Shown: piece by piece, positions 30,250 through 64,000 of the stretch
Layout of the letters: each line of letters starts with the position of its first letter
Position numbering within the stretch: position 1 is the stretch's first letter
Origin: an uncultured Lentisphaeraceae bacterium
Lineage (GTDB): Bacteria; Verrucomicrobiota; Kiritimatiellia; RFP12; UBA1067
Direction of reading: 5' to 3'
Length of the DNA: 64,000 bases
Assembly (NCBI GenBank): GCA_964386865.1
Contig: CAYLUN010000010.1
Location: 20,754-84,753, forward strand
Translations under genes and position numbers: made by a program
Notes under the pieces: generated by a model
The model's database searches: none
The model's input: the letters and a program-made list of their open reading frames with translations, nothing else
What the model was told of the DNA's origin: nothing

Positions 30250-30251
30250 GG

Positions 30252-30893: not shown

Positions 30894-30897
30894 ACGG

Positions 30898-31806
30898 TCA
30901 CCTGATTAGAAGAATGAAGCCGAAGCCGCAGAAGAGCAGCGCGCCCACCAGCAGGTAGGGCACGTGCCGCATTTGAAGGCGGGCCGTCACCGATTCCACC
31001 ACGCCGATAATGGCCGCCAGCCCCACGAGCTCCATGAGGTAGAGCGGCCAGTCGAGGTAGCTGCGGCCGGTGGCGAAGGGGGCCACCACGTGCAGCAGCA
31101 CGGTGCCGAGCACGAGCAGTTTGACCGACGAGGCGTAGAGGATCAGGCCGAAGAGCGGGCCGCTGTGGTCGAGCACCATGGCCTCGTGAATCATCGTCAG
31201 CTCGAGGTGGGTGGTCGGGTCGTCCACGGGGATGCGGCAGGTCTCGGCCAGCATGACGATGAACAGCCCGATCGAGATCAGCACCAGCGGCGCGGCGACG
31301 TCTGCGGAGAGGGCGAGCGAGGGGCCGTGCAGCATGGGCGCGAGCGAGAGGGAACCCGAGATCTTCGCCAGCACGAGGAAGGCGAAGAAGAGCGCTGGCT
31401 CAGAAAGGCAGGCGAAGGTCACCTCGCGCGCGGAGCCCATGCCCTCGAAGGCCGAGCCCGTGTCCAGCGCGGCCGTGGTCGTGAAGAACCGCGCCAGGCC
31501 GAAGAGGTAGGCGAAGAGGATGAGGTCGCCCGTGAAGGAGATCGGCGCGCCGAACGCGCCAAAGGGGATCAGCAGCCCGGCGAGCAGGACGGCGGCCAGC
31601 GTCACAACCGGGCCGGCGCGGAAGACCCACGTGGTCGTGTCGCTGATCACCATGCCCCGCTGGAGCAGCTTGGCGATGTCGTAGTACGGCTGCAGCAGCG
31701 GCGCGCCGACGCGGCCCGCGAACCACGCTTTGGTCTTGGTGATGACGCCGAGCAGGAGCGGAGGCGCCAGCAGCAGCACGACGATATGGATCAGGGTGTC
31801 GATCAT
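30898..31806 (-). CDS. Ehr/Hyf complex NuoH-like membrane subunit (HyfC/HycD-like)
   Basis: 302 aa. NuoH/HycD-like conserved helices ('LLQPYYDIAKLL', 'LAETCRIPVD'). Confidence 0.8.
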   Translation of the reverse strand: MIDTLIHIVVLLLAPPLLLGVITKTKAWFAGRVGAPLLQPYYDIAKLLQRGMVISDTTTWVFRAGPVVTLAAVLLAGLLIPFGAFGAPISFTGDLILFAYLFGLARFFTTTAALDTGSAFEGMGSAREVTFACLSEPALFFAFLVLAKISGSLSLAPMLHGPSLALSADVAAPLVLISIGLFIVMLAETCRIPVDDPTTHLELTMIHEAMVLDHSGPLFGLILYASSVKLLVLGTVLLHVVAPFATGRSYLDWPLYLMELVGLAAIIGVVESVTARLQMRHVPYLLVGALLFCGFGFILLIR

Positions 31807-31812
31807 GGCTTG

Positions 31813-33813: not shown

Positions 33814-33834
33814 ACGGAAGTCAGAGGTCGGCGG

Positions 33835-35850
33835 TCAGCGCGCGAACCACTGCGCAAGGAAGGCTTTGAACGGGAACAGGGTGCTGAGTAAGGCGAGCAA
33901 GGTCAAGAGGATGTAGAGCACGTAGTGTTGGGTCAGCCCGCGCTGGAAGCGGTGGAACCAGCCGAACCCGCTCTCGATGCGGGCTCCGGCGGGCAGCAGC
34001 AGGCGGTCGAGCACCGCGTCGTCTACGTGGCTGTGCATGTGGGACGGTTGAGGGAAGAGCCCGGACACGCGCGGCCGCCGGCCGTGCGGGCGGAGCACCC
34101 GGACGAAAAGGAGGACGATTGTCTGGGCGAACGAGGAGGCGGTGTACTGCATCCGCGCGGTGGGGCGCGCGTAGCCGCAGTCCCACGTGGGGCCGGTTCG
34201 CGGCGCGGCGGCCTGCCGCCTCAGCAGGCGGGCGAGCCCGGCGGCGCAGGCGAGGAGGGAGAGTGCCAGCACGCTGATCGCGCCGACCGGCGCGAGCTGG
34301 GCGAGCCGTGCGGGCGCGAGCGAGGTGCCCGTGAGCCAGCAGGCGCACGAGGCGTCGAGCACCGGCGCGACGAGCGCGGGCGCGACCCCGATCAGCACGC
34401 AGCAGGCGGCGAGAGCCGCCATCGGCAGGCGCATCGTGAGGGGCGCCTCGCGGGCGTGCGCCGCCGCCCGGGTGCGCGGCTCGCCGAGGAAAACGGCGCC
34501 GTACACCTTTACGAAGCAGGCGACCGCCAGCGCGCCGACGGCGGCCAGCACGGGCACGCCGATGACGGCGGAGACGGTGCCCGGCCCGGCGGCGGTCGCG
34601 CGGCTCAGCAGGCCGAGGTAGACGAACCACTCGCTGACGAAGCCGTTCAGCGGGGGCAGGCCGCAGATGGCGACCGCACCGATCAGGAAGCAGGCGGCGG
34701 TCCACGGCATGGCCTTAGCGAGGCCGCCCAGGCGGTCGATCTGGCGCGTGCGTGCGGTGTGGACCACCGCGCCGGCGCAGAGGAAGAGCAGGGACTTGAA
34801 GAAGCTGTGGTTCCAGACGTGCAGCAGGCAGCCCGCGAGGCCGAGCGCGACCCAGTCCGCGCGGCCGGCGGAGCGGCCCAGCAGGGCCACGCCGAGGCCC
34901 ATCAGGATGATGCCGATGTTCTCGACGCTGTGGTAGGCGAGCAGGCGCTTGAGGTCGTGCTGGCCGAGGGCGAACACGACGCCCAGCAGGCCGCTGGCCG
35001 CGCCCAGGAGGAGGATCAGCGCGCCCCACGCGGCCGGCGGGTCTGGCAGCAGCGTCAGCCAGCGCACGAGGCCGTAGATGCCGGTCTTGAGCACGACGCC
35101 CGAGAGCATGGCCGAGACGTGGCTCGGTGCGCTGGCGTGGGCGCCGGGAAGCCAGAAGTGCAGCGGCATCATGCCGGCCTTGAGGCCGAAGCCGATCAGC
35201 ACGAGCAGGAACAGGAGGTTCGACAAGCCCGGCCCGAACGCGCCGGGAGCGGCGGGCTCGAGGGCGTACGAGCCTGTCGCGTGACGCCACAGCGCGAAGA
35301 GCGCGAAGAGCGTCAGCGTGCCCACATGCGTGGCGAACAGGTAGATCCAGCCCGCGTCGCGGCTCTCCGCGCGCTGGTCCTCGGTGGAGACTAAGAAGAA
35401 AGCGGAAAGCGCCATGAACTCCCAGCCCAGCAGGAAGGTCAGCGCGTGGCGGCTGACGATCAGCAGCGCCATGCCCGCGACCATCAGGCCCCAGAAGAGG
35501 CGCAGCTTGCGGCCGTTGCCGGGGTGGCGGCGCTGGGGCCAGTAGCCGAGGCCGTAGATGGGGCCGAGCGCGCCCATGAGGAAGACCGGCACGAGGAAGA
35601 ACGCGCTCAGCGGGTCGAGCCCGACCAGGCCGTTGCCGGCAGCCGGCCACGGGAAGAAGGAGGCGGGCGCCGCGCTGCCGCGGGTGCCGCACAGTGCTCC
35701 GGCGGCGCCGGCGAGCCCCACGAGGCCGGAGGCGGCCATCAGGATCACCGCGAGGCGCTCGCCCCGGCCTGACGCGCGCGGCAAGGCCGCGCCCGGAAAC
35801 CCGCTGGCGGCCGCAAGGGCGATGGCGAAGATGATCAGGTCGAGGAACAC
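33835..35850 (-). CDS. Ehr/Hyf complex antiporter-like subunit, paralog 1 (HyfB/NuoL-like)
   Basis: 671 aa. Same family as 31813..33813 ('MMPLHFWLPGAHASAPSHVSAMLSGVVLK', 'LLAYHSVENIG'); tandem duplication. Confidence 0.8.
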   Translation of the reverse strand: MFLDLIIFAIALAAASGFPGAALPRASGRGERLAVILMAASGLVGLAGAAGALCGTRGSAAPASFFPWPAAGNGLVGLDPLSAFFLVPVFLMGALGPIYGLGYWPQRRHPGNGRKLRLFWGLMVAGMALLIVSRHALTFLLGWEFMALSAFFLVSTEDQRAESRDAGWIYLFATHVGTLTLFALFALWRHATGSYALEPAAPGAFGPGLSNLLFLLVLIGFGLKAGMMPLHFWLPGAHASAPSHVSAMLSGVVLKTGIYGLVRWLTLLPDPPAAWGALILLLGAASGLLGVVFALGQHDLKRLLAYHSVENIGIILMGLGVALLGRSAGRADWVALGLAGCLLHVWNHSFFKSLLFLCAGAVVHTARTRQIDRLGGLAKAMPWTAACFLIGAVAICGLPPLNGFVSEWFVYLGLLSRATAAGPGTVSAVIGVPVLAAVGALAVACFVKVYGAVFLGEPRTRAAAHAREAPLTMRLPMAALAACCVLIGVAPALVAPVLDASCACWLTGTSLAPARLAQLAPVGAISVLALSLLACAAGLARLLRRQAAAPRTGPTWDCGYARPTARMQYTASSFAQTIVLLFVRVLRPHGRRPRVSGLFPQPSHMHSHVDDAVLDRLLLPAGARIESGFGWFHRFQRGLTQHYVLYILLTLLALLSTLFPFKAFLAQWFAR

Positions 35851-40429: not shown

Positions 40430-40672
40430 ATGTCTGTGGAGGAGAGGGCCGAAGCGAAAACCGCGCTGCCGCGGCCGGTGATCGACACCGACGAGTGCAA
40501 GAGCTGCGGGCGGTGTGTGGTGGCGTGCCCCCAGAAGTGCCTGCGGCTTGCCGGCCGCCTCAACCGCCGCGGGGTGCACCCCGTCGAGTACGCGGGAGCA
40601 GGGTGCACGGGATGCGGGGTCTGCTTCTACAACTGCCCCGAGCCCTACGTGATTGCGATTCAGAAGGCGTAG
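40430..40672 (+). CDS. 2-oxoacid:ferredoxin oxidoreductase delta subunit (2x[4Fe-4S] ferredoxin)
   Basis: '[12 protein letters not shown]' and '[12 protein letters not shown]' motifs. GGAG RBS upstream of ATG 40430. Confidence 0.75.
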
Positions 40673-40728
40673 CTGAACGGGGAGTCCGGTCGCGTGCGCG
40701 CGTGTGCGAAGGGAATGAAGTAGCAAGC

Positions 40729-41784
40729 ATGACGAGGTTTGTCAAAGGCAACGAGGCCGTAGTCATCGGCGCGCTATACGCCGGCAGCGATGTCTACTTT
40801 GGCTATCCGATCACGCCCGCGAGCGAGATCGCCCACGCGGCAGCCGAGTGGTTCCCCGCGGTGGGGCGCGAGTTCCTTCAGGCCGAGTGCGAGACCGCCT
40901 CCATCAACATGGTTTACGGGGCCGCCACCGCCGGGCGGCTGGCGCTCACGGCCTCCTCCGGCCCCGGCATGAGCCTGATGCAGGAGGGACTCTCCTACAT
41001 GGCCGGCGCGGAGCTGCCCGGCGTCATCGTGAACATCATGCGCTCCGGCCCTGGCTTGGGCAACGTTTACCCTGAGCAGAGCGACTACAACCAGGCGGTC
41101 AAGGGCGGCGGCCACGGCAACTACCGGTGCGTGGTTCTGGCGCCGGCCAGCGTCCAGGAGATGTGCGACCTGACGATCAAGGCCTTCCAAATGTCTTTTG
41201 CCTATCGCACGCCGGCCATCCTGCTGGCCGACGGGCTGCTGGGCCAGATGATGGAGACGCTGGCCCTGCCTGAGCGCGAGCTGCCGCGGCCCGACACGAC
41301 CTCCTGGTCCGTGCAAGGCACGGCGGCCACGCGGCGCAACCTCGTGACCTCGATCTTCCTCGACGTCAAGGCGCAGGAGGCGCACAACCTCAAGCTGCAG
41401 GCGAAGTACGCGGAGATGGACCGCGAATCGTACCACGAGGCCTACCTGTGCGAGGACGCGGAGGTCGTGCTGATCGGCTACGGGATCTCGAGCCGGATCG
41501 CCCGCACCGCAGCCGAGGCGCTGCGCGCCAGAGGCGTCCGCGCGGGCGTGTTCCGGCCGATTTCGCTGAGCCCGTTCCCGGCGGAGGCGCTGTGCCGGTT
41601 GACCGAAGGTCGCCAGGCGCTGGTGGTGGAGCACAGCGTGGGCCAGTTCCGCGACGACGTGCAGTTTCACCTGGCCCGCGAGGGCCGGCGCTATCAGGAG
41701 GTCGGGCTGGTCAACCGCCTCGGGGGCACGATCGTGACCGTGGACGAGGTGACGGCCGCGGCAGAACAGGCGCTGGGTCGGTAA
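40729..41784 (+). CDS. 2-oxoacid:ferredoxin oxidoreductase alpha subunit (PorA/KorA-like)
   Basis: 351 aa. '[10 protein letters not shown]', '[11 protein letters not shown]' POR_N domain motifs. Confidence 0.8.
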
Positions 41785-41816
41785 GACGCGCGCGCGGCGC
41801 GGAGAGGCTTTTCGGA

Positions 41817-43244
<1,428 letters not shown>

Positions 43245-43284
43245 CGAAAGCCCCGCGTGAAGGCGCGGTCCGTAGGGGTGCGCG

Positions 43285-45393
43285 ATGGGTGCTCGATTCC
43301 AGAGAGACTGGCTGCCGGCGTCGGCCGTTTTTTGCGGCTCGTTCCTGCTTTTCCTGATCCAGCCCCTGCTCGGCCGCACGCTCCTGCCGGTGTTCGGCGG
43401 CAGCGCGGCGGTGTGGGGCGTGTGCCTCGCCGCCTATCAGGTGCTGCTGCTGGTCGGGTATGCGTACGCGCACGGTCTCAGCCAGTGGCCGCTGCAGCGG
43501 CAGCACCGCGCGCACCGGGCGCTCTTGCTCGCCGCGGTTGTGTGGTCGTGCGCCGTGGCGGTCTGGGGCAGCCGGCTCAAGGCAGCCTTCGGCGGCTCGT
43601 CTGCGCCGGCGCTGGAGGTGCTCGTCTGCGTGCTGGTGTTTGTGGGCCTGCCGTATGTGCTGCTGGCGTCCGGAAGCACGCTGGTGCAGGCCTGGCTGGC
43701 GGGCGCGGGCGCTCAGGAGCGCGGCGGGAAACCCCGCGACGTGTACGCGCTTTACGCCGTGTCGAACGCCGGATCCCTGCTGGGCTTGCTGAGCTACCCG
43801 CTCGCGCTGGAGCCGTTCGTGCCCCTGACCGCGCAGTGGTGCGGCTTTGCGGCCGCGCTGGGCGGGTACCTCGTTCTCGTCGCGCGACTGGGCGCGCGGA
43901 TGCCCGCGGAGGCGGGCGCCGGTCGGCCGGCCCTGGCGGCGGCGAGCAAACCCGCGAAGGCGGCCCCTTTCCAGTGGTTCCTCCTTCCGGCCGCGAGCAC
44001 GTTTCTGCTCAACGCGGTGATCGCGCATCTGTTCACAGACGTCACGCCGATGCCGCTGGTTTGGGCGCTCATGCTTGCGGTCTATCTGCTCAGCTACATC
44101 GTGGGTTTTTCTTCCGCCGGCGAAAGGGGGCGCGGCCTGTGGTGCGCGCTGGCCGCCTTGGCGCTGGCCGGCGCGGCGGCGGCGAACGGGATGTGGGGCA
44201 CGGGGAGTTTCTATCCAAATGCGGCGGCGGCCGCCGCGCTGGTTTTCTTCGCAGGCGTGGTGCTGCACGGCTGGCTGTATGCCGAGCGCCCGGAGAGCGC
44301 GCGGCTGACGCGATATTATCTCTCCATCGCAGGGGGAGGCGCGAGCGGCGGGCTGCTCGCCTCCCTGGTCGCGCCGCTTGTCTTCTCCCGCGTGTTCGAA
44401 TATCCGCTGGCGCTTCTGGCCTGCGCCGTGCTGGTGGCGTGGCGCTGTCCGAAGCCCGCTTTCATCGGGCGTTCGCCGGCGAGGGCCCGCCTCGTGGTCG
44501 CGTGCGCCGGCCTGGCTTGGCTGGCCCTTTCGTGGGCCTTGGCGCGGCATACGCAGTCGCTCACGATCTTCGCCGGACGGAATTTCTACGGCTCCCTGCG
44601 GGTTACCAAGACGGTGGAGTCGTTCGGACGTGACGGGGCATATCCGGTTCATTACCTGTGGTGCGGGCAAACCACGCACGGCATTCAGGTGCAGTCGCCG
44701 AAACTGAGAAGGCAAGGCACGTCGTATTACGGCCAGGCGGGAGGGGGCATCGCGTTTCTTGCCCACCCGAAGTACCGCGCTGGACAAGGGGTCAAGGTGG
44801 GCGTGGTCGGCCTGGGGGCGGGCTGCTTGGCCTGCTACGGCCGGGCGGGCGACCTGTTCCGTTTCTACGAGATCAACCCCATGATGGTGCGCGTGGCGAC
44901 CGACCCCAACCTCTTTACGTTTCTGCCGGAGGCTCCGATGCGGATCGACCTGGTGCCGGGCGACGCGAGGAGGATGCTGCAGAAGGAGCGCGCCGCAGGA
45001 GACCCGCTCTACGACATCGTGGTCGTGGACGCGTACAACGGCGACGCCGTCCCGTATCACCTGGCGACGGGCGAGGCCTTCAAGCTCTACTTCGACCGGC
45101 TCGCACCCGATGGCATCTTGGCCGTTCACGTGAGCAACTGGCACATCGACCTGCTGCCCCTCTGCAAGGCGATGGCGCAAGAACTGGGCGCCTGCGCCTA
45201 CGGCGTGATCAGCGCGCAAGAGAACAGCGTGACCGCCGGCTCCATCTGGGTCTTCATGACCCGGCGCCCGTTCCTGTACCGGTATCCGGGCAAAGAGCGG
45301 GTGCGCGAGGTGTCGTGGGAGCAGGTGCGCGACAGCCGCGTGCCGACGGACGAGAAGGGGAGCCTGCTTCCGCTTCTGAGGAACCCGTTCTGA
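43285..45393 (+). CDS. fused polytopic membrane (MFS-like) / spermidine-synthase-like protein
   Basis: N-terminal ~450 aa multi-TM. C-terminal 'DIVVVDAYNGDAVPYHLATGEAF' spermine/spermidine synthase motif. Confidence 0.75.
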   Translation: MGARFQRDWLPASAVFCGSFLLFLIQPLLGRTLLPVFGGSAAVWGVCLAAYQVLLLVGYAYAHGLSQWPLQRQHRAHRALLLAAVVWSCAVAVWGSRLKAAFGGSSAPALEVLVCVLVFVGLPYVLLASGSTLVQAWLAGAGAQERGGKPRDVYALYAVSNAGSLLGLLSYPLALEPFVPLTAQWCGFAAALGGYLVLVARLGARMPAEAGAGRPALAAASKPAKAAPFQWFLLPAASTFLLNAVIAHLFTDVTPMPLVWALMLAVYLLSYIVGFSSAGERGRGLWCALAALALAGAAAANGMWGTGSFYPNAAAAAALVFFAGVVLHGWLYAERPESARLTRYYLSIAGGGASGGLLASLVAPLVFSRVFEYPLALLACAVLVAWRCPKPAFIGRSPARARLVVACAGLAWLALSWALARHTQSLTIFAGRNFYGSLRVTKTVESFGRDGAYPVHYLWCGQTTHGIQVQSPKLRRQGTSYYGQAGGGIAFLAHPKYRAGQGVKVGVVGLGAGCLACYGRAGDLFRFYEINPMMVRVATDPNLFTFLPEAPMRIDLVPGDARRMLQKERAAGDPLYDIVVVDAYNGDAVPYHLATGEAFKLYFDRLAPDGILAVHVSNWHIDLLPLCKAMAQELGACAYGVISAQENSVTAGSIWVFMTRRPFLYRYPGKERVREVSWEQVRDSRVPTDEKGSLLPLLRNPF

Positions 45394-45480
45394 TCGGAGC
45401 GGGACGGTTGCTCGGCCCCGGCTCGGCTGGTATACTGCAGCCCTGACACGGGGAGGAAGCGAGCAGGGGGTGCATCCGTC

Positions 45481-46491
45481 ATGCCAGGCCCACGCAAAAT
45501 CGTTTTTACCGACGGGCGCGAGACCCATCGCGCCGACGACTGCCTGCCGCTGACGCGGGCGGTCGCAGCCGGCGAGATGGAGCTGCACGCGCTGGCCCGG
45601 CACAGCTATCCGGGCGAGGCGCTGAAGGCCGGCGAGGCGCCGGGCGTCTGCTCGGTCGGGTACTGGCGGACGGTCGGCGAGCAGCGGCACGGCTTGGCTC
45701 CGCACCGCAACGAGGGCGTCGAGCTGACGATGTCGCTGTCGGGCGAGACGCCGGTGACGGTGGAGGGCCAGCCGTATGTGCTTCGCCCCGGCGAGCTGAT
45801 GGTGACGCGGCCGTGGCAGGTCCACTCGGTCGGCAGCCCCGTCTTCGCAGCCGGCAAGGTGGGGTGGCTCATCCTCGACGTCGGCGTGCGCCACCCGCAT
45901 CAGGCGTGGCGCTGGCCGGCGTGGGTCGTGCTGACGCAGGAGGAGGTCGATTTCCTGACGCGCGCGCTGCGCCAGAATGAGGATGCGATCCGCCCGGTCC
46001 CCGACTCGCTGGCGGAGTCGTTCGGCCGCCTGGTGCGGATCGCCGGGCGTCCGGACGCGCCGCACCGCGGCTCGCGGGTCGTGGTGGCGGTGAACGCGCT
46101 GCTGCTGGAGCTGTTCGACCTGTTCGAGGCCCGCCCGGTCCGCTACAGCCCGGCGCTGACCGACGCCTCGCGCAGCGTGCGGCTGTTCTTGGCGGAGCTG
46201 CGCGCGCGGCTGGCCGAGCCGTGGAGCGTGCGCAGCATGGCCGAGGCGTGCGGGCTGGGCGCGACACACTTCACGCGGCACGTCCAGCTGGTGACCGGCG
46301 AGTCGCCCGCGCACCACTTGCTCGGGCTGCGGCTTGAGCAGGCCGCGCGGCGGCTGCGCCAGGAGCCGGGCGTGCCGGTCGCCGAGATCGCCCGGCACGT
46401 CGGCTTCTCGCACGCCAACTACTTCGCCCGCGTCTTTGTGCAGCGCTACGGCTGCACGCCGGCGGCGTGGCGGAACAAGAAGTGCCCATGA
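45481..46491 (+). CDS. AraC-family transcriptional regulator (cupin sensor + HTH)
   Basis: C-terminal AraC HTH 'MAEACGLGATHFTRHVQLVTGESPAHH...IARHVGFSHANYFARVF'. Confidence 0.85.
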   Translation: MPGPRKIVFTDGRETHRADDCLPLTRAVAAGEMELHALARHSYPGEALKAGEAPGVCSVGYWRTVGEQRHGLAPHRNEGVELTMSLSGETPVTVEGQPYVLRPGELMVTRPWQVHSVGSPVFAAGKVGWLILDVGVRHPHQAWRWPAWVVLTQEEVDFLTRALRQNEDAIRPVPDSLAESFGRLVRIAGRPDAPHRGSRVVVAVNALLLELFDLFEARPVRYSPALTDASRSVRLFLAELRARLAEPWSVRSMAEACGLGATHFTRHVQLVTGESPAHHLLGLRLEQAARRLRQEPGVPVAEIARHVGFSHANYFARVFVQRYGCTPAAWRNKKCP

Positions 46492-46540
46492 GCCCCGCGT
46501 CGCCGGGAAGCGGAACGGCCGGCCGGCAAACTCCATTTTC

Positions 46541-55088: not shown

Positions 55089-57062
55089 ATGTGTAGGCGA
55101 GAGTCCGGTGTGCGGCGGATGTCGTGTGCGGCGGCGCTGATGGTGCTTGGCGCGGCGGCGCAAGGTGCGACGGCGGCGGAAAAGCCGAACGTGGTTTTCT
55201 TCCTTGTGGACGACATGGGGTGGATGGACTGCGGCGCGTACGGCTCGCAGTACTACGAGACGCCGAACATGGACCGGCTCGCGAAGCAGGGCATGCGCTT
55301 CACGCAGGCCTACGCGCAGCCGCTCTGCTCGCCCACGCGCGCGTCGATTCTCACGGGCCAATACGCGGCGCGCCACCGCATCACCAGCGCCTCGGGCCAC
55401 CAGCCGCCGCAGGCGTCGGACGACGAGCTGATGCCCAAGGTCGCCCGGCCGAACGCGCCGCTGCTGATGCCGGAGAGCAAGAACTTCCTCGAGCCGTCGC
55501 AGATCACGCTGGCTGAGGCGCTGCGCGACGCCGGCTACCGCACGGCGCACATCGGCAAGTGGCACCTCGGGCTGACTCAACCCTATTGGCCGGAAAAGCA
55601 GGGCTTCGAGGTCGCCTTCCACGCCCAGCCGAGCCCCGGCCCGGCCAGCTACTTTTCGCCGTACGGCGTCGTTCCAGAGGGAGCGCCGAGCGCCAAACAG
55701 CACGTCGGCACGATCACCGACGGGCCGGCAGGCGAGTACATCACGGACCGGCTGACCGACGAGGCGGTCACGTTCATCGAGGGCAGCAAGAGCAAGCCCT
55801 TCTTCTTGAATCTCTGGCATCACGGCGTCCACGGGCCATGGGGGCACAAGGAGGCCTACACGGCGCAGTTCGCGAAGAAGGGCGACCCGCGCGGCGTGCA
55901 GGGCAACCCGCTCATGGCCTCGATGCTCAAGAGCGTCGACGAGAGCCTCGGCCGCATCATGGCCAAGCTCGATGAACTCAAGCTGGCGGACAACACGGTC
56001 ATCGTCTTCTACTCCGACAACGGCGGTAACGTGCACAGCAACACGCCCGACGACGAGAAGGGCAAGCGGCGCAGGCCGGACGATACGCGGCTGCTGGACT
56101 GGCGCAAGTGGGCTGGTGACCGTCCGCCGACCTGCAACGCGCCGCTGCGCGACGGCAAGGGCCGGCTCTACGAGGGCGGCATCCGCGTGCCGCTCGTCGT
56201 CCGCTGGCCCGGCAAGGTTGCGGCGGGCGCGACAAACGACGCGGTCGTGGGCTGCGTCGACCTGTATCCCACGCTGCTCGACCTCGCCGGCGTGCCGGTT
56301 CCGGCGGCGCAGAAAGTGGACGGCGTGTCGTTCGCGCCGGTGCTGCGCGGCACGGGCGCGCTGACGCGTGAGGCGTACTTCACCTGGTTCCCGCACCTCG
56401 TGCCGGGCGTCGCGGTGCGCAAGGGCGACTGGAAGCTCATCCGGCGCTTCGAAGAGCGGCCGTCGGAGTACGAGGGCCTGTTCGAGCTGTTCAACCTGAA
56501 GGACGACCTCGGCGAAACGAAGAACCTGGCTGCAGCGATGCCGGACAAAGTGAAGGAGCTGGACGCGCTGATCGACGCCTTCGTGAAGGAGACGGGCGCG
56601 CTCTATCCGAAACCGAACCCGGCGTACAAGCCGCAGGCTGCGGTGACCGCGCCTGCAGCCGACCCGGCGCAGGGGCTGGTGCCCAAATTCTGCAAGGCCA
56701 CGGTGGCGGGCGGCGCGCTGCGCGTCGAGGCGGACGGGCGTAACCCGTTCCTTGGCACAGCGCAGGTGAAGGCACGTGGGCCGCTCACGCTCGCGCTGCG
56801 CGCCCGCTGCGCGGCGGGCGGGCCGGGCAAAGTGCAGTGGGTCACCGGGGACAACGCCGATTTCACGGTGCCCGGCCAGACGGCCGAGTTCGCGCTGAAA
56901 CCTGGCGCAGAGTGGCAGGATGTCACGATGGCGCTGCCGATCCAAGGTGCGCCGCGCATCGTGCGGCTCTACCTGCCCGCCGAAAAGGGGCCGGTCGAGG
57001 TCGCCTGGATCCGCTACCTGGACGCGTCCGGCAAGCCGGTGCGCGTGTGGACATTCCGTTGA
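55089..57062 (+). CDS. sulfatase (formylglycine-dependent, Cys-type) with C-terminal extension
   Basis: Signal peptide. 'VVFFLVDDMGW' metal-binding block and 'CSPTRASILTG' C-x-P-x-R FGly signature. 'GKWH' motif. Confidence 0.85.
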   Translation: MCRRESGVRRMSCAAALMVLGAAAQGATAAEKPNVVFFLVDDMGWMDCGAYGSQYYETPNMDRLAKQGMRFTQAYAQPLCSPTRASILTGQYAARHRITSASGHQPPQASDDELMPKVARPNAPLLMPESKNFLEPSQITLAEALRDAGYRTAHIGKWHLGLTQPYWPEKQGFEVAFHAQPSPGPASYFSPYGVVPEGAPSAKQHVGTITDGPAGEYITDRLTDEAVTFIEGSKSKPFFLNLWHHGVHGPWGHKEAYTAQFAKKGDPRGVQGNPLMASMLKSVDESLGRIMAKLDELKLADNTVIVFYSDNGGNVHSNTPDDEKGKRRRPDDTRLLDWRKWAGDRPPTCNAPLRDGKGRLYEGGIRVPLVVRWPGKVAAGATNDAVVGCVDLYPTLLDLAGVPVPAAQKVDGVSFAPVLRGTGALTREAYFTWFPHLVPGVAVRKGDWKLIRRFEERPSEYEGLFELFNLKDDLGETKNLAAAMPDKVKELDALIDAFVKETGALYPKPNPAYKPQAAVTAPAADPAQGLVPKFCKATVAGGALRVEADGRNPFLGTAQVKARGPLTLALRARCAAGGPGKVQWVTGDNADFTVPGQTAEFALKPGAEWQDVTMALPIQGAPRIVRLYLPAEKGPVEVAWIRYLDASGKPVRVWTFR

Positions 57063-57152
57063 CAACGGAGCCGGGAGCTTGCTAAGATGTTTTTACTGGA
57101 TGCAATTGGTTTTGGGGATTGAAACAAGCGAACGTACAACAGGGGGGCTGAC

Positions 57153-60100
57153 ATGCGTGCGCGGTTCATGGGGTTCGGTTATGCGGCACTCGTGTTGGCC
57201 TGCTGTTTGCTGGGGCTTCGTGAGGCGTGTGCCGCGCCGTTGACCATCGAGGCCTCGGCCTTTGACCGCGGCAACGTGCGGGTGAGCGTAACGGGTCAAC
57301 CCTATGCAGACGGCCCCGGCTGCATCTGGCACGGCGGCGCCTCGCCCGACAAGGCCGAGTACTACATCGAGTTTCCGGCAGACGGCGCTTATGCGCTCGA
57401 AGCCCTTTACGCGGCTCAGGACTCGCGGCCGGTCAACATTCTGCTGGATGACGTGGCGGTTCACACCGGCTTCACGTCGACAACGGGCGGCTGGACGACC
57501 AAGACCGCCCGGTGGGAGCGGCAGCTCGTCCTGACGAAGGTGGTCGCAGGGACACGGAAGCTGACGCTGCTGCGCAACGGCCCGATGCCGCATATCTGCG
57601 CGCTGAGGCTTGAGCCGACGCAGCCCCTTCCGGCGGGCCGGGCGCTTGAGCGAGCGTCGCCGGAGAGTGTGGCCGCACGGCTGAAGGAGGCCGCGCAGCG
57701 CGAGCGCGTCGCCGAGCTGCGCCAGAGGCTCTGCGCCTATGAGCCCAAGGCGGTGCGTCTGGCCTTAGACGATCTCGCGCAGACCTTTCCCGCGCGCGTC
57801 GATGCCTCCGCCGGGCGCCAAGCCGTGGAGGCGTACGAGCGCGAGCGAGAACGGATTGAGCAGGCGCTGGACAAGGGGCAGTGTCCTGATCCCGAGCCGC
57901 TGGAGACACGCATTGCGGCCGTACGCGCTGCGCTTCTGGCAAACCCGCTGCTGGATTTCGACCGGCTGCTGGTGGTGCGCCGTAACTTCCGCGGCGACCA
58001 GGCGCGGCAGGTCACGGGGGCTGGCGCGGGCTTCGTTCCGGCCGGCTGGCAGAACGCGGTCGGGATTCCGAAGCTGAAATGGGACAACGAGATTGTGCTG
58101 CTCTCCGGCCTGCGCGGCACCCCGAAGGCGGAGGTTCTGCACAAGCCGGAGAACGGCCGGATCGTGCGCGACGTGTGCCTGGACTTTTCCGGCGACCGCC
58201 TGCTCTTCTCGAGCCGCTCCGAGACCGACCGGTGGTCCGTCTGTGAGCTAAACGTCGCCGACAAGAGCGTGAGCCAACTGACGCCGACAAACTACCCGGA
58301 CGTGGATTTCTTCGACGCCTGCTACCTGCCAAACGGCAAGGTTGTCATGGCTTCGACCGCGAACTACCAGGGCATTCCGTGCGTGGGCGGCAGCAGCCCA
58401 AGCTGCGGCCTTTACCTGCTCGATCCGGCCACGCAGGCCGTCCGGCAGCTGACCTTTGACCAGGATAACGACTACAGCCCGCGGGTTCTGAACGACGGGC
58501 GGGTGCTGTATCTCCGGTGGGAGTACAGCGACATCCCGCACTACTTCGCGCGCCGCCTGATGTCCATGAATCCGGACGGCACCGGACAGCTGGCGCTGTA
58601 CGGCAGCAACGGCTGGTTCCCGGTGGGCTTCCGCTTCGCCGCGCCGGTGCCGGGCAGCTCAGGCCGCCTGGCCGGAATCATCGCCGGGCACCACGAGTGC
58701 GGCGAGTTCGGGCGCATGGCCCTTCTGGATCCGGCACGCGCCTCGCACTATCCCTTCCGGTTCCGCCCGGATTCCAAGGTGTGGGGCGAGCGCGAGGCGA
58801 AGCCGGCGGACAGCCCGCGCCCCGACGGGCAGCGCGTGCGGATCAGGGAGGAGACGCCGTGCGTGGTGGTTCCGGAGATCCTGCCGGCGGACCAGACCGG
58901 CTGGGTGCAGCTCATTCCGGGTTTCGGTAAGACGGTCGCCGGCGTGGTCTGCGACGCGATCATGACCGATTACTACGCCAAGCAGAACCCCGCGCTCACC
59001 GTTTCGGCCGGCGGCTTGCCGGCGGGCGACGCCGACTTTTATCGCAACGTCAAGCGAACAGCCACTCTGACCACGCATCCGTGCCCGCTGAGCGACAGGT
59101 ACTTTCTGGTATCGCAGAAGAACCGCGACAACGACCTGTGGGGCATCTATCTGGTGGACGTGTTCGACAACGCCACGCTGCTCGCGGAAGCGGAGGGCGC
59201 GGCGCTGTTCGAGCCGGTACCCTTGCGCGCGCGCCCCAAGCCGCCCGTCATTCCGGACCGCACCGCGCCGGCGAGCCGGACCGCCGACGTACACATCGCG
59301 GACCTCTACGCGGGGCCGGGGCTGCGGGGCGTGCCGCGCGGCACGGTCAGCCGGCTGCGCGTCTTCTCCTACCACTTCGGCTACAACCAGAAGGCGGGGC
59401 CCGGCTACGTGGGGATGCAGTCGGGCTGGGACATGAAGCGGGTGCTGGGCACGGCGACCGTCGAGTCTGACGGGTCTGCGCACTTCCAGATTCCCGCCAA
59501 CACGCCCGTCTCCCTCCAGCCGCTGGACCGCGAGGGCCAGGCGGTGCAACTGATGCGCACGTGGCTGGTCGGCATGCCGGGCGAGAGGGTCTCCTGCGTG
59601 GGCTGCCATGAGGAGCGCTCGACCACCCTGCCGCTGCAGCGCAGCCTCGCCAGCCAGCGGGCGGCTGAGGCGCTGGAGCCCTGGTGCGGCCCGCCGCGGC
59701 CGTTCGCCTTTGCGCACGAGGTCTACCCCGTGCTGGCGAAGTCTTGCGTCGGCTGCCATAGCGGCGCGGCGGCCGCAGGGCCGCGGAGCAAGCCGTCGTT
59801 CAAGGACGCCGACAGCGCCTATGCCGGGCTGCGGCCATACGTCCACGTGCCGGCCTTGGAGAGCGACATGGCGCTGCTGACGCCCATGGAGTACCACGCG
59901 TCGACCAGCCCGCTGGTTCAGATGCTGGCGAAAGGGCATCACGGCGTGACGTGGTCCGCGCTGGGCGGCGAGGCCCGCGAGCGCCTGACCTGCTGGATCG
60001 ATCTGAACGCGCCGAACCGCGGGAGCTGGGCGCCGCCGGCGCATGCCGAGCGCAATCAGATCCAGCGCCGCCGCGAGCTGGCCGAGCGTTTCGCGCACGT

Positions 60101-61130
60101 CGAGGACAGTCCGGAGGCGGAGGGCCAGGAGATCGCGGAGCGGCTGCGGAGCGGCGAGCCTGTCCGCTTCGTCGCGCCGCCGCCCGAGGAGCCGGCCCGT
60201 CCGGACGGCCTGAAGGCGCAGGGCTTCCCGCTGGCGGCGTCCGAGGCGCGCCAGCTCCAGCAGGCGTCCGGCGCGGCGGTGCGGCGGACGGTGGAGCTGG
60301 GTGACGGGGTCAGCCTGGCGCTGGTGCGAATCCCGGCAGGCGCCTTCGTGATGGGCAGCTTGGACGGGGCGCCGGATGAGCGGCCGCGCGCGGTGGTGCG
60401 CGTCGACCGGCCGTTCTGGATGGGCGTCACCGAGGTGGACAACGCGCAGTACGCGGCGTTCGATCCGGCGCACGACACGCGCTACGTCGACATGCACGGG
60501 ATCAACCGCGTCACGCCGGGCTACATCGCCAACCACCCCGAGCAGCCCGTCGCGCGGGTCTCGTGGGAGGAGGCCCAGCGGTTCTGCGCGTGGCTGAGCC
60601 GGAAAGCCGGGCTGAAGGTGACGCTGCCCACCGAGGCCCAGTGGGAGTGGGCCGCGCGCGCCGGGGCGGAGACGCCGTTCTTCTACGGCACGCAGGAGGC
60701 GGACTTCGGCCGCTTCGCCAATTTGGCCGACCGCTCGCTGCGCTGGTTTGACACAAGCTGGGAGGGCCGCGGCAGCCTGCTGCAGAAGCGCTTCGCCTAC
60801 CCGGAGAACAACAACCTCCCGCTGCGCGACGAACGCTTCAGCGACGGCTGGTTTGTGGTGGACTATTGCGGGCGGATCGAGGCCAACGCGTGGGGGCTGA
60901 AGGACATGGTCGGGAACGTCAGCGAGTGGACGCGCTCGGACTACCGGCCCTATCCCTACCGCGACGGTGACGGACGGAACGGCGAAGCGAGCCCTGAGCG
61001 GAAAGTGGCCCGAGGCGGCTCGTGGGCCGACCGCCCCGCCGACGCAGGCGCCTCCGTGCGCCGCGCCTACCAGCCGTGGCAGAGAGTCTACAATGTCGGC
61101 TTTCGCGTGAGCGCGGAGGCGAACGACTAG
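57153..61130 (+). CDS. large secreted multidomain protein: N-terminal beta-sandwich, TolB-like beta-propeller, two CxxCH motifs (PSCyt-like), C-terminal FGE-sulfatase (formylglycine-generating-enzyme family) domain
   Basis: 1325 aa. Signal peptide. 'SCVGCHEERS' and 'SCVGCHSGA' CxxCH motifs. C-terminal 'VRIPAGAFVMGS...RGGSWAD...YNVGFRV' is the FGE/SUMF1 family pattern. Confidence 0.7.
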   Translation: MRARFMGFGYAALVLACCLLGLREACAAPLTIEASAFDRGNVRVSVTGQPYADGPGCIWHGGASPDKAEYYIEFPADGAYALEALYAAQDSRPVNILLDDVAVHTGFTSTTGGWTTKTARWERQLVLTKVVAGTRKLTLLRNGPMPHICALRLEPTQPLPAGRALERASPESVAARLKEAAQRERVAELRQRLCAYEPKAVRLALDDLAQTFPARVDASAGRQAVEAYERERERIEQALDKGQCPDPEPLETRIAAVRAALLANPLLDFDRLLVVRRNFRGDQARQVTGAGAGFVPAGWQNAVGIPKLKWDNEIVLLSGLRGTPKAEVLHKPENGRIVRDVCLDFSGDRLLFSSRSETDRWSVCELNVADKSVSQLTPTNYPDVDFFDACYLPNGKVVMASTANYQGIPCVGGSSPSCGLYLLDPATQAVRQLTFDQDNDYSPRVLNDGRVLYLRWEYSDIPHYFARRLMSMNPDGTGQLALYGSNGWFPVGFRFAAPVPGSSGRLAGIIAGHHECGEFGRMALLDPARASHYPFRFRPDSKVWGEREAKPADSPRPDGQRVRIREETPCVVVPEILPADQTGWVQLIPGFGKTVAGVVCDAIMTDYYAKQNPALTVSAGGLPAGDADFYRNVKRTATLTTHPCPLSDRYFLVSQKNRDNDLWGIYLVDVFDNATLLAEAEGAALFEPVPLRARPKPPVIPDRTAPASRTADVHIADLYAGPGLRGVPRGTVSRLRVFSYHFGYNQKAGPGYVGMQSGWDMKRVLGTATVESDGSAHFQIPANTPVSLQPLDREGQAVQLMRTWLVGMPGERVSCVGCHEERSTTLPLQRSLASQRAAEALEPWCGPPRPFAFAHEVYPVLAKSCVGCHSGAAAAGPRSKPSFKDADSAYAGLRPYVHVPALESDMALLTPMEYHASTSPLVQMLAKGHHGVTWSALGGEARERLTCWIDLNAPNRGSWAPPAHAERNQIQRRRELAERFAHVEDSPEAEGQEIAERLRSGEPVRFVAPPPEEPARPDGLKAQGFPLAASEARQLQQASGAAVRRTVELGDGVSLALVRIPAGAFVMGSLDGAPDERPRAVVRVDRPFWMGVTEVDNAQYAAFDPAHDTRYVDMHGINRVTPGYIANHPEQPVARVSWEEAQRFCAWLSRKAGLKVTLPTEAQWEWAARAGAETPFFYGTQEADFGRFANLADRSLRWFDTSWEGRGSLLQKRFAYPENNNLPLRDERFSDGWFVVDYCGRIEANAWGLKDMVGNVSEWTRSDYRPYPYRDGDGRNGEASPERKVARGGSWADRPADAGASVRRAYQPWQRVYNVGFRVSAEAND

Positions 61131-61142
61131 TGGGGAGCGCGT

Positions 61143-61934
61143 ATGGCTGACAAGAAACCAAACTACGATGTGCCGAGCCTGAAGACAGGCTTTGAAATGC
61201 TCGAGTTCCTCTCGCGCCATCCGCGCGGGCGGCTGCTGACGGAGGTCGCCGAGGAGCTGTCATGCCCTGTCTCCAGCGCCTACCGCATCGCCGTGGCGCT
61301 GGAGAATCTGGGCCTGCTGTCGCGCGACCCGGAGACGAAGCAGATGCGTCTCACTAACAAGCTCTTGCAGATCGGCCAGCGTGCCATCACGGAGACCAAC
61401 TTGGTGGAGCACGCGCTGGACCTCATGCGCGAGCTGCGCGACCGCGTGCAGGACACCGTGCTTATCGGCGTGCGCGAGGGCAAGGAGGTCATCGTGCTGG
61501 ACGAGGCCATCGGCACGCGCATGTTCTGCTTCGTCTCCAAGCTCGGCTACCGCATCGGCGTCTCCTGTTCCGCGCCCGGCAAGGCGATCCTCGCCTTCCT
61601 GCCCGCACACGAGCGCGACGAGCTGATCGCCGCAATCAAGTTCATCCGCTACAATGAGCGGACAATTACGTCGAAGGAACAGTTGCGCCGCGAACTGGCC
61701 GGGGTAGTTGAGAAGGGCTACGCCTTCGACGACAGCGAGCAGTTCGAGGGCATCTACTGCATCGGCGCGCCGGTGTTCGACCGCAGCGGCTATCCGGTCG
61801 CGGCCGTGTGGACAACCGGGCTGATGATGAATATCGACCGGAAACACATTCCGGAGATCGGCGCGACCGTCAGAGCCCACGCCGACCGCATCTCGGCACG
61901 CTTGGGGTATAACAAGGGAAGGACGTTCGAATGA
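61143..61934 (+). CDS. IclR-family transcriptional regulator
   Basis: 263 aa. N-terminal wHTH ('LEFLSRHPRGRLLTEVAEELSCPVSSAYRIAVALENLGLL') and C-terminal IclR effector domain. Confidence 0.85.
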   Translation: MADKKPNYDVPSLKTGFEMLEFLSRHPRGRLLTEVAEELSCPVSSAYRIAVALENLGLLSRDPETKQMRLTNKLLQIGQRAITETNLVEHALDLMRELRDRVQDTVLIGVREGKEVIVLDEAIGTRMFCFVSKLGYRIGVSCSAPGKAILAFLPAHERDELIAAIKFIRYNERTITSKEQLRRELAGVVEKGYAFDDSEQFEGIYCIGAPVFDRSGYPVAAVWTTGLMMNIDRKHIPEIGATVRAHADRISARLGYNKGRTFE

Positions 61935-64000
61935 ATCATGGACTATGGGCGGGCATGGTGGCGCTGGGAACGCTGGCTGTGATGGACTCTGCGGTCGCAG
62001 GGCCGCGCGTGCGCGTCGAGGAAGAAGCGCGCAAGGCGTTGACGGTGACGGCGGATCCCGTCAGCACGAATGCTGTCACGTCCATCGCCTTTCCGGCGCA
62101 GCAGGCCAAGGTTGTCCGGCTGGTGATTCGCACGACCCACGGCGGCGCGGCGTGTCTGGACGAGCTGGAGCTTTACGCGCCGGACGGGAAGGAGAACCTC
62201 GCGCTTGCCTCGCGCGGCGCGGTGGCGCGCGCCTCCTCCGTGATTTCCGGCTATGCGATCCACGCCGTCGCGCATCTGAACGACGGACAGGCCGGGAACG
62301 ACCACAGCTGGATCGCCGCGACACCGAATGAGGAGTGGGCGGAGATTGAGCTGCCGCAGGCGACCCTGGTCTCTCGGGTTGACTTCTCGCGTGACCGCAC
62401 GGGGAAGTTTACCGACCGGCATCCGAAGGATGTTGAGATCAGAATGTCCATGGACGGCAAGGCTTGGACAACGGTTTCCAAAGCCACGTGCGTGAATAAT
62501 AAGAAGCAGTCCTCATTAACGCTGCCGGCTTCGGCGCTGAAGGAACCGACGTGGAAGGGCGTTGTGGAATACGCCTTCCGGTGTGAGCGCGACACGTGGG
62601 GGCGGATGGACGCGAAGGATGAACTCTCGCCGCTGCTTAAGGATCGTCCGGCCGTTCCCGGCGGTGCGCCGTACTGGGGACGCGTCGCGCGGCTGTCGGC
62701 GGTCGAACGCGCGCTCGTTCAGTTCGAGGAGATGACCGCACGCCTCGCCGCGCAGGGCCTGGCGGTCGCGAAGGAGCAAGGCGAACTGGCGGCGCTGCGC
62801 GCCCGCGTGAAGTCGGAAGGGGAGTCAGACGCGCTCTATCTCGCGGCGCGATACGCCAAACGCCGGCTTTTCTTCCGCGATCCGCGGCTGGCGCCGGCGG
62901 GGCGCGTGCTCTTTGCGAAGCAGCATCCGCTCGAGCCCTCGCACAACTACAGCGAGCATATGGACGGCAAATACGTCGCAGGCGGCGGCGTCTATGTGCT
63001 GCACGTCCCGCGCGACGCGGAAGACCGGCTTGACCCCGCGTCCGCAGAGGTGGAGATGCTGTTCGACGGCTCGGCTGGAATCGTGCGACATCCGGTTTCC
63101 GACGTTGACGGGCAGACCCTCTTTTTCGCCTACCGGCCCGAAAAGCCCGAGGTGGAGGGCTGGTTGCCCTACTGGCACCTGTGGACGATGCGCGCGGACG
63201 GCAGCGGGGCGCGCAAGCTCACCGAGGGGCCCTTTCACGATTTCGATCCTGTGCCGCTGCCCGACGGCGGGCTGGGTTTTATCTCCACCCGCTGCGTCTC
63301 GCGCTTCCTCTGCTGGCAGCCGCAGGCTTACGTGCTTTATCGCATGAAGCGCGACGGCACAGACATGAAACGTCTTTCCCATGCCAACCTCAGCGAGTGG
63401 GATCCGGCCGTGACCCGCGACGGGCGTATTTTATGGACGCGCTCCGAATATCTGGATAAGGGAGCGGACTTCGGGCACACGCTGTGGTCGATCCGCCCCG
63501 ACGGAACCCATCCCGAGTTGGTCTTTGGCAATAACACACCCTACTGCTACGGCCATGCGCGCGAGGTGCCAGACAGCCAGGAGATCGTTTGCACGCTCAT
63601 CACGCACGGCGATCATCAGGGGCCCATTGCGCTGATCGACCGGTCGAAGGGGCTGTATGAGACCGCCGCGATCACCAGCATCACGCCTGACACTAGGCCG
63701 CGGTATCAGATGGACCGTTCGCATCAGGAGACCTTCCGTTATCCCGAGCCCGTCTCGCGCGACCACGTTCTGGTCAGCCACAGCCCCGGGCCGCGCTCGC
63801 ACTGGGGACTGTATGTCATCGACCGTTATGGCAACCGCGAGCTGCTCTACCTCGACCCAGCGATCAGCAGTAAAAAGCCTTCGCTGCTGCGCGCGCGTGT
63901 CAGTCCGCCGGTGCTGCAGGATGTGACGGATGCGAAGTTGGCGGCGCAGGGCTTAGGCCAGTTCACCGTGCAAGACGTCTACGAGGGCTTGGGAAGCAGC
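61931..64000 (+). CDS. secreted F5/8-type-C (discoidin)-like domain + TolB-like beta-propeller protein, 3'-truncated by window end
   Basis: ATG 61931 overlaps the iclR stop (ATGA). Signal-like 'MNHGLWAGMVALGTLAV'. Discoidin-like 'VVRLVIRTTHGGAACLDELELYAPDG'. Propeller repeats resemble the middle of the 57153..61130 protein. No stop before the window end. Confidence 0.6.
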   Translation, partial: MNHGLWAGMVALGTLAVMDSAVAGPRVRVEEEARKALTVTADPVSTNAVTSIAFPAQQAKVVRLVIRTTHGGAACLDELELYAPDGKENLALASRGAVARASSVISGYAIHAVAHLNDGQAGNDHSWIAATPNEEWAEIELPQATLVSRVDFSRDRTGKFTDRHPKDVEIRMSMDGKAWTTVSKATCVNNKKQSSLTLPASALKEPTWKGVVEYAFRCERDTWGRMDAKDELSPLLKDRPAVPGGAPYWGRVARLSAVERALVQFEEMTARLAAQGLAVAKEQGELAALRARVKSEGESDALYLAARYAKRRLFFRDPRLAPAGRVLFAKQHPLEPSHNYSEHMDGKYVAGGGVYVLHVPRDAEDRLDPASAEVEMLFDGSAGIVRHPVSDVDGQTLFFAYRPEKPEVEGWLPYWHLWTMRADGSGARKLTEGPFHDFDPVPLPDGGLGFISTRCVSRFLCWQPQAYVLYRMKRDGTDMKRLSHANLSEWDPAVTRDGRILWTRSEYLDKGADFGHTLWSIRPDGTHPELVFGNNTPYCYGHAREVPDSQEIVCTLITHGDHQGPIALIDRSKGLYETAAITSITPDTRPRYQMDRSHQETFRYPEPVSRDHVLVSHSPGPRSHWGLYVIDRYGNRELLYLDPAISSKKPSLLRARVSPPVLQDVTDAKLAAQGLGQFTVQDVYEGLGSS

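Follow-up and report, generated by a model that had tools for sequence, protein, structure and literature searches.

The gene at 57153-61130 of the forward strand of the window, which is the whole stretch of 64,000 nucleotides that was analysed from contig CAYLUN010000010.1 of an uncultured Lentisphaeraceae bacterium, encodes a protein of 1325 aa that, by its sequence features, is exported and carries two conserved c-type haem attachment motifs on the scaffold of the alpha subunit of hydrazine synthase (HZS). The protein is best explained as a dihaem redox protein that is exported, is targeted to glycans, and belongs to an HZS-like system, a reading to which we give a probability of roughly 55%. 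From the N-terminus to the C-terminus, it is built by a signal peptide, a domain of the carbohydrate-binding module (CBM) 35/6 fold, a four-helix linker, a beta-propeller, the HZS alpha middle domain with the first CxxCH motif, a domain with the second CxxCH motif, a linker, and a domain of the formylglycine-generating enzyme (FGE)/PvdO fold. The identity of these parts, namely the HZS alpha scaffold, the two predicted c-type haem sites, the CBM35/6 module, and an FGE fold devoid of the catalytic cysteines, is proposed with high confidence.

Two Pfam domains match the protein significantly, HZS_alpha (PF18582, aa 730-820, E 1.9e-31) and FGE-sulfatase (PF03781, aa 1057-1319, E 9.2e-39). The propeller is located at 57960-59252 (+, aa ~270-700), is homologous to the propeller of HZS alpha, and has the TolB-like fold that a preliminary description of this DNA had proposed (Foldseek against TolB, E ~1e-9). 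It contains the invariant motifs RWEY (aa 455-458) and GHH (aa 512-514). The HZS alpha middle domain, which is the region matched by PF18582, is found at 59253-59657 (+) together with predicted haem site 1, formed by C815-V-G-C818-H819-E820 (nt 59595-59612). The second haem domain and a helical region are located at 59658-60152 (+) and contain C865-V-G-C868-H869 (nt 59745-59759), the invariant His915 and His929, and the nearly invariant His930; this domain gives weak matches to generic cytochrome c models of Pfam. In the propeller and middle domain, 13-25% of the alignment columns are invariant, including those of RWEY, GHH, and the Glu after the CxxCH.

The AlphaFold2 (AF2) model of aa 160-1325 has a mean pLDDT of 79.7 and a pTM of 0.82, and its best match in the Protein Data Bank (PDB) is chain 5C2V_A, the HZS alpha subunit of Kuenenia stuttgartiensis, with E 1.6e-23, 895 aligned columns, and TMt 0.55 (Foldseek). 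A profile of the core (aa 290-1040), which was built from 40 family members, matches the same chain with E 3.2e-18 in five collinear segments, of which three fall in the propeller and one each in the middle and C-terminal haem domains. The middle-domain segment ends at the first CxxCH and the C-terminal segment contains the second; C815/C818/H819 thereby pair with the motif of haem alpha-I and C865/C868/H869 with that of haem alpha-II. Based on the profile and on the modelled fold, the propeller and the two predicted haem sites are jointly a homologue of HZS alpha, which the preliminary description missed. It had ascribed the CxxCH motifs to planctomycete PSCyt domains, an assignment that is rejected here for both PSCyt1 and PSCyt2: when the full-length sequence and aa 750-1050 are compared with Pfam, allowing E values up to 1, they match HZS_alpha and, weakly, generic cytochrome c families, and no PSCyt model.

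Though homologous to HZS alpha, the protein is, judging from the aligned residues and model scores, not a hydrazine synthase, because Tyr591 is replaced and the score against the dedicated family model is far under its cut-off. In HZS alpha, zinc is bound by His587, which is the histidine of the first CxxCH, and the proximal ligand of haem alpha-I is Tyr591, four residues further on (PMC12607021, PMC12758564). In the alignment with 5C2V_A, His819 pairs with His587 and is followed by E-E-R-S, so the tyrosine is absent here. Among 135 cluster representatives, the residue directly after this histidine is Glu in 126, and the commonest residues at the fourth position after it are Asn, Ser, Arg, Asp, Gly, and Thr, with Tyr not among these. 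The NCBIfam model hydrazine_alpha (NF052339) gives 23.6 bits against a cut-off of 800. While HZS alpha is the sole sequence match of the protein outside the FGE family, as well as its best structural match, the identity is only ~14%. The protein also differs from HZS alpha by three added parts, which are the CBM35/6 module, the four-helix linker, and the FGE-fold domain, and by its host, which is not an anammox bacterium. No beta- or gamma-like open reading frame (ORF) is detected by tblastn in the 64-kb window, which ends inside a paralogue of the gene, and no other CxxCH-containing ORF or cytochrome is found within the window.

Distant HZS alpha homologues outside anammox bacteria were described by Hagglund et al. 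2025 (PMC12758564), who termed them few, with key residues lost and function unknown, and likewise concluded that they are not hydrazine synthases. These proteins resemble the one described here in being distantly alpha-like, in having two haem motifs, in lacking key HZS residues, and in the fused beta-gamma-like genes that are often nearby. Whereas they are called few in that work, the FGE-bearing branch alone comprises hundreds of species here. The supplementary hit table of PMC12758564 includes one 1110-aa protein of the 'SUMF1/EgtB/PvdO family', and the words 'FGE', 'sulfatase', and 'carbohydrate' are not found in its main text. In the literature, no publication was found on the CBM-HZS alpha-FGE architecture, none that combines 'hydrazine synthase' with 'FGE-sulfatase' or 'hydrazine synthase alpha' with 'sulfatase', and nothing on PF18582/HZS_alpha beyond anammox papers and one evolutionary study.

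The combination of these parts belongs to one genuine gene, as had been claimed. The frame is uninterrupted over its 1325 codons, and its GC content at the third codon position is 0.89, which is typical for genes of this window of 65-72% GC. All the sequence motifs quoted in the preliminary description are found at the given places: CVGCHEE at aa 815 (nt 59595), CVGCHSG at aa 865 (nt 59745), VRIPAGAFVMGS at aa 1058, RGGSWAD at aa 1287, and YNVGFRV at aa 1313. About 0.008 CxxCH motifs would be expected by chance in a protein of such composition, and both are invariant across family alignments of 37 and 64 sequences. A second, independent contig encodes a 100% identical protein, the domain order is the same in more than 100 full-length homologues, which are 1250-1330 aa long, and an FGE-bearing form with two CxxCH motifs is encoded in 78 of 80 related loci; the architecture recurs in hundreds of metagenome-assembled genomes (MAGs). 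The identical copy and the homologues of the same order therefore indicate that the fusion is not an assembly artefact, and the possibility that misassembly or a frameshift has joined separate genes can practically be dismissed.

The N-terminus, MRARFMGFGYAALVLACCLLGLREACA followed by AP, resembles a signal peptide for Sec export whose A-x-A site would be cut after residue 27, as read by eye from the translation, in agreement with the earlier description of the protein as secreted. The putative signal peptide comprises aa 1-27 (57153-57233, +), with cleavage expected after ACA, and varies more within the family than any other segment.

The N-terminal module of 130 aa that follows (57234-57623, +, aa 28-157) has the fold of CBM35 and CBM6, as indicated by AF2 modelling, Foldseek, and the family profile. 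A second AF2 model, of aa 25-280, has a pLDDT of 92.1 and shows a beta-sandwich and then four long helices. The beta-sandwich matches the CBM35 structure 2W1W with E 1.4e-7 and TMt 0.78, and also 2W47 and 2VZP (Foldseek), and the N-terminal profile of the family matches CBM35 chains with E 2e-5. Pfam CBM_6 is matched by 19 of 27 N-termini of the family, and in other members this slot is taken by F5/8 type C, SASA esterase, or Laminin_G_3 modules. Unlike CBMs attached to glycoside hydrolases, this module is attached to a predicted cytochrome. The four-helix linker (57660-57938, +, aa ~170-262) is defined by the secondary structure of the AF2 model and has no family match.

A Pro/Ala-rich linker (60153-60296, +, aa 1001-1048), which is poorly conserved and has low pLDDT thereabouts in the model, connects the haem domains to the FGE/PvdO-fold domain (60297-61118, +, aa 1049-1322). 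The preliminary description had recognized a C-terminal module of the FGE/SUMF1 family, and the PF03781 match, of 134 bits against a cut-off of 23.3, bears it out. The nearest solved structure is PvdO of Pseudomonas aeruginosa (5HHA, TMt 0.73), with human FGE at 0.65 and human and bacterial FGEs in the range of 0.60-0.65 (Foldseek). PvdO is also the best match of the single sequence (E 4e-13), and PorK/GldK are among the best matches.

The domain shares fold and Pfam family with FGE and lacks its catalytic residues. The window domain and eleven relatives were aligned with human SUMF1, using a sequence identical to PDB 5SSY_A over residues 72-374. Neither cysteine of the catalytic pair is retained: Cys336 corresponds to Asp or Asn, and Cys341 falls within a 3-residue deletion. 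Of 284 sequences from the family, 252 have Asp where SUMF1 has Cys336 and a single one has Cys; a C-x(3-6)-C pair is found in this stretch in only two. Trp299 is replaced by Ser, and the segment ~148-185 of SUMF1 is missing from the domain, with some uncertainty about its C-terminal edge; we take this segment and Trp299 to be parts of the substrate peptide groove. The SUMF1 residues N259, D273, N293, G296, and E300 presumably form two structural Ca2+ sites, and in the alignment all of them are kept except N293, which is Asp here. The domain has in addition a family-specific insertion, NNLPLRDERFSDGWFVVDY, at aa 1221-1238, which together with D1293-R1294-P1295 belongs to its conserved face. A catalytic FGE is rejected, as the cysteine pair is absent against the verified SUMF1 sequence, hence no Cu(I) site is formed, and the suggestion that the module belongs to the fold without being an FGE is borne out. 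While FGE is an enzyme of ~300 aa, the domain is here the C-terminal module of a much longer protein.

An EgtB-type nonheme iron enzyme is also rejected. The Pfam scan of the protein reveals no DinB-like domain, which carries the three-His iron site in EgtB and OvoA, and the NCBIfam equivalogs GldK, PvdO, SenA, EgtB, and OvoA all score far under their cut-offs, the last two and SenA matching through the FGE-fold part only. PvdO, PorK/GldK, and the C-domain of EgtB are likewise devoid of the FGE cysteines and are binding or scaffold modules in the periplasm. The domain described here differs from them in being fused to a haem protein, in lacking the DinB-like iron domain of EgtB, and in not being a component of a lipoprotein ring.

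Of 105 full-length cluster representatives, 98 have the FGE-like domain, which shows a mean top-residue frequency of 0.78 and 13% invariant columns, the same as in the haem core. Being as conserved as the propeller and the haem domains, it is, judging from the alignments, under selection and not a decaying remnant. Homologues are named 'formylglycine-generating enzyme required for sulfatase activity' (many of them in JGI) or 'nonheme iron enzyme' in the databases, hundreds being so labelled, and both names are contradicted by the sequence features described above. Because of this misnaming, FGE gene counts are inflated in sulfatase-rich genomes of the Planctomycetes-Verrucomicrobia-Chlamydiae (PVC) group, and the inference of aerobic sulfatase maturation in anaerobes can mislead.

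A role in sulfatase maturation was suggested by the position of the gene, which lies on the same strand as a Cys-type sulfatase and 90 nt downstream of it. According to this explanation, the protein is a maturase or chaperone whose FGE fold binds the CxPxR motif of exported sulfatases and whose haems make formylglycine without O2 or scavenge O2. The sulfatase (55089-57062, +) matches PF00884 with E 1.4e-59 and has CSPTR at nt 55326-55340. Past its Sulfatase and SGSH_C domains, it has a C-terminal extension of ~170 aa (aa ~483-657) that no Pfam family matches. The gene had been called translationally adjacent to it; the CSPTR sulfatase is indeed upstream on the same strand, but the link was overstated, as the 90-nt gap is AT-rich and contains the promoter-like site TTGACA-18-TAAGAT (57059-57088, +), which is sigma-70-like with 10 of 12 consensus matches and an extended TG. 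The promoter-like site is followed by an AT-rich block of ~33 bp, TTACTGGATGCAATTGGTTTTGGGGATTGAAAC (57092-57124, +), of which ~24 of 33 bases are identical upstream of an orthologue with 71% identity (locus L081, ~9850-9885), where it is kept though the upstream genes differ. The segment 57059-57124 is a candidate promoter/operator, perhaps an IclR operator, for the gene and the two genes that follow it.

These two genes encode an IclR-family regulator (61143-61934, +; Pfam HTH_IclR and IclR_C), which starts 12 nt past the stop of the 1325-aa protein gene and whose stop overlaps the next start, and a paralogue (61931-64000, +), which extends beyond the window end. The paralogue, which had been noted as a propeller protein after iclR, has a signal peptide, an F5_F8_type_C domain (Pfam), and an HZS-alpha-like propeller; it is distant, with 27-33% identity over the propeller (BLASTP). 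Its full-length orthologue in L081 has 997 aa, HZS_alpha and both CxxCH motifs, and no FGE domain. The order in L081 is a divergent GH123 glycoside hydrolase, the orthologue of the 1325-aa protein, IclR, and the 997-aa F5/8C-HZS_alpha paralogue, with no sulfatase, and IclR adjoins the orthologue in L082 too. In the locus of a 63% orthologue, the genes encode IclR, the orthologue, an Fe-ADH, a Mal s 1-like protein, GH2, a second HZS and FGE protein, and a beta-gamma-like protein. From the promoter-like site, the conserved AT-rich block, and the tight spacing of the three genes, we conclude that the conserved local unit consists of the 1325-aa protein gene, iclR, and the FGE-less paralogue, and that the sulfatase, judged to lie outside this unit, is an incidental neighbour in a glycan-degradation region.

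The wider survey of loci agrees with this conclusion. The context analysis comprised the best 80 of at least 591 loci in a collection of one genome per species, plus the window, 81 in total. An iterated sulfatase profile detects a sulfatase-like ORF within ~10 kb in 7 of the 81 loci, and in three of them (L003, L059, and the window) it is directly adjacent. In a census of Pfam families among the 232 closest neighbouring ORFs, divided into a first batch of 128 immediately adjacent ORFs and a second batch of 104 further ones, Sulfatase is found in 2 of the 128 and is not one of the 25 commonest families of the 104. Functional coupling to the sulfatase is rejected, as neither the ORF clustering of the 81 loci, nor the sulfatase profile, nor the census reveals enrichment.

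The maturase explanation is considered very unlikely. In its favour, the family is concentrated in sulfatase-rich phyla, the strong conservation of the FGE-like domain implies some role, and no gene similar to the radical-SAM anaerobic sulfatase-maturating enzyme (anSME) is found within the 64-kb window, where only two CxxxCxxC strings occur, both in ORFs of ~140 aa that overlap longer ORFs. No second FGE was found in the window either. The cysteines are absent, as described above, which the preliminary description would have read, jointly with an anSME elsewhere, as the mark of a non-catalytic domain; within the window, there is no such anSME. Against maturation stand the loss of both cysteines throughout the family, the replacement of Trp299 and the deletion of the ~148-185 segment, whose C-terminal edge is uncertain, the rarity of neighbouring sulfatases, their absence beside the closest orthologue, and the promoter-like site between the two genes. 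To our knowledge, bacterial sulfatase maturation is cytoplasmic or takes place on unfolded chains.

The protein is an ordinary member of a very large uncharacterized family, which is already in the databases and misnamed there. A scan with aa 290-1040 retrieves 4866 clusters (50% identity) at E<=1e-3 and 1179 at E<=1e-30. The nearest homologues of the protein are from MAGs labelled as Verrucomicrobia and Planctomycetota. The best 80 loci are all from MAGs, mainly of Planctomycetota, Verrucomicrobiota, Kiritimatiellia, and Lentisphaerae, and also of Armatimonadota, Hydrogenedentes, Sumerlaeota, and a few others, obtained from rumen, horse faeces, anaerobic reactors, and lake water. In the ORF clustering of the 81 loci, the only large cluster is the family itself, with 118 members, and 26 loci have two or more copies, typically one FGE-bearing and one without FGE, both with two or three CxxCH motifs. 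Tandem arrays of 3-5 paralogues on the same strand, in which FGE-bearing and FGE-less forms are mixed, are present in L010, L013, L015, L035 (five copies), L037, L069, and others.

In 10 of the 80 loci (about 12%), a family member has as its direct neighbour a beta-gamma-like gene, which encodes a protein of ~620 aa with a lactonase/YNCE-type propeller and then a CCP/MauG-type dihaem module. Two family proteins, P0190 (3230 aa) and P0209 (2831 aa), are fusions in one chain of PATR repeats, the alpha-like core, the FGE-like domain, PKD repeats, and a beta-gamma-like unit, which is complete (E ~1e-175), and each has four CxxCH motifs. Because these two proteins join both units in one chain, the Rosetta-stone evidence suggests that alpha-like and beta-gamma-like parts act together in at least part of the family, a further likeness to HZS alpha. 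The common and modular alpha-like scaffold, with its thousands of clusters and two beta-gamma fusions, provides comparison points for the origin of the anammox enzyme.

In the mechanism that we propose, the protein would be a periplasmic or surface redox protein that acts on a carbohydrate or a carbohydrate-derived substrate, which the CBM35/6 module and the lectin-like FGE-fold domain may hold and position. Haem 1 would lie at the interface between propeller and middle domain, as in HZS alpha, would be the reactive centre, and would probably be ligated by the His of its own CxxCH, not by a Tyr. The invariant polar residues RWEY 455-458, H513/H514, and E820 would cluster, in sequence, around this predicted interface. 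Haem 2 would be an electron relay. Candidate axial ligands are M801 and H741 for haem 1, and H915, H929, and H930 for haem 2. In part of the family, the protein may work with the CCP/MauG-type partner, as alpha does with beta and gamma in HZS, and this partner may give or take oxidizing equivalents. Neither formylglycine nor hydrazine would be made by the protein. A glycan-redox function as such is a tentative proposal, with the odds somewhat against it.

As to the nature of the glycan, several solved CBM35 modules in the Foldseek hit list are uronic acid binders, and the IclR family includes KdgR-type regulators. For these two reasons, the CBM35 fold and the IclR regulator fit the catabolism of an acidic polysaccharide, which is suggestive only. 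The genes around the window copy encode GH81, a GLAA-B-like beta-helix protein, an ATP-grasp protein, GH2, and the sulfatase, and neighbours at other loci include fucosidases, GH2, GH123, Gfo/Idh/MocA, ThuA, FGGY kinases, and DeoC aldolases. The census is heterogeneous, with 154 families in the first batch and 188 in the second. The propeller/CCP_MauG proteins of beta-gamma type are found 6-7 times in the first batch and twice in the second, Gfo/Idh/MocA 3 and 2-3 times, and Alpha-L-fucosidase twice in each; IclR (4) and ThuA (3) are found in the first batch and are not listed for the second.

Several points weigh against a glycan-targeted redox protein. The substrate and the reaction are guesses for any member of the family. 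CBMs and glycan-rich surroundings are common in these phyla and are weak evidence for a glycan substrate, and the N-terminal module of the window protein is under every Pfam CBM threshold when scanned alone. No neighbour family occurs in more than ~12% of the loci, thus the context says little, and the beta-gamma-like gene is missing from this 64-kb window.

The unconserved context is also what would be expected of a stand-alone stress enzyme, and the homology to HZS alpha and the resemblance of the partner to the CCP/MauG-like gamma subunit would suit a chemistry of small molecules such as NO, hydroxylamine, nitrite, or peroxide, in detoxification or nitrogen metabolism, which the protein may perform alone or with that partner, the CBM and FGE-like domains being anchors to envelope or matrix. 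FGE-fold proteins such as NirV accompany nitrite reductases. However, the residues that define the alpha-I site of HZS are not conserved, nitrogen-cycle genes are not among the commonest families of the 232 neighbours, and the variation in type of the N-terminal CBMs fits substrate targeting better than simple anchoring, so this explanation is judged improbable.

A non-catalytic protein is equally improbable. It would be a lectin-like binding or scaffold protein of the surface or periplasm, in which the haems merely pass electrons, for example to or from an extracellular acceptor, or are structural. Several FGE-fold proteins are structural, with PorK/GldK among the best sequence matches, as mentioned, and FGE-less paralogues coexist with the FGE-bearing forms. 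For haem alpha-II of HZS itself, no function is known (PMC12607021). On the other hand, the share of invariant columns in the propeller and middle domain, with RWEY, GHH, and the Glu after the CxxCH among them, is typical of an active site, and some family members are fused to a catalytic module of CCP/MauG type.

The dihaem redox protein aimed at glycans thus remains the preferred explanation, and the equally strong conservation of the FGE fold and of the haem core in glycan degraders points to an unexplored periplasmic redox activity. In a wider and rather doubtful extension of this explanation, the HZS scaffold, which is usually treated as a near-unique invention of anammox bacteria, may be a specialized offshoot of a much larger family, that of haem enzymes exported by PVC bacteria which degrade polysaccharides. 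This scaffold would consist of an alpha-like subunit with propeller and haems, whether or not a beta-gamma partner of CCP/MauG type joins it. The branch described here, aimed at glycans by its CBMs and FGE fold, would perform haem-based oxidation or peroxide-driven cleavage or modification of carbohydrate. If true, it would represent a new class of carbohydrate-active redox enzyme, copper-free and possibly O2-independent.

Elsewhere in the window, a complex-I-like module with a fusion of the 49-kDa and 30-kDa subunits and two antiporter-like subunits of Mrp/NuoL type are found at 27287-35847, and a two-subunit 2-oxoacid:ferredoxin oxidoreductase at 40495-43241; both fit the anaerobic lifestyle that had been ascribed to the organism. 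Two ORFs overlap on opposite strands, 43069-46536 (-) with 1155 aa and 43285-45393 (+) with 702 aa, and neither has a Pfam match; the choice of ORFs by length and GC content at the third codon position retained the plus-strand 43285-45393. The gene at 21893-25255 (+) encodes a protein of 1120 aa with only weak, sub-threshold matches to GH42, GH39, and GH88, which may be a divergent glycoside hydrolase.

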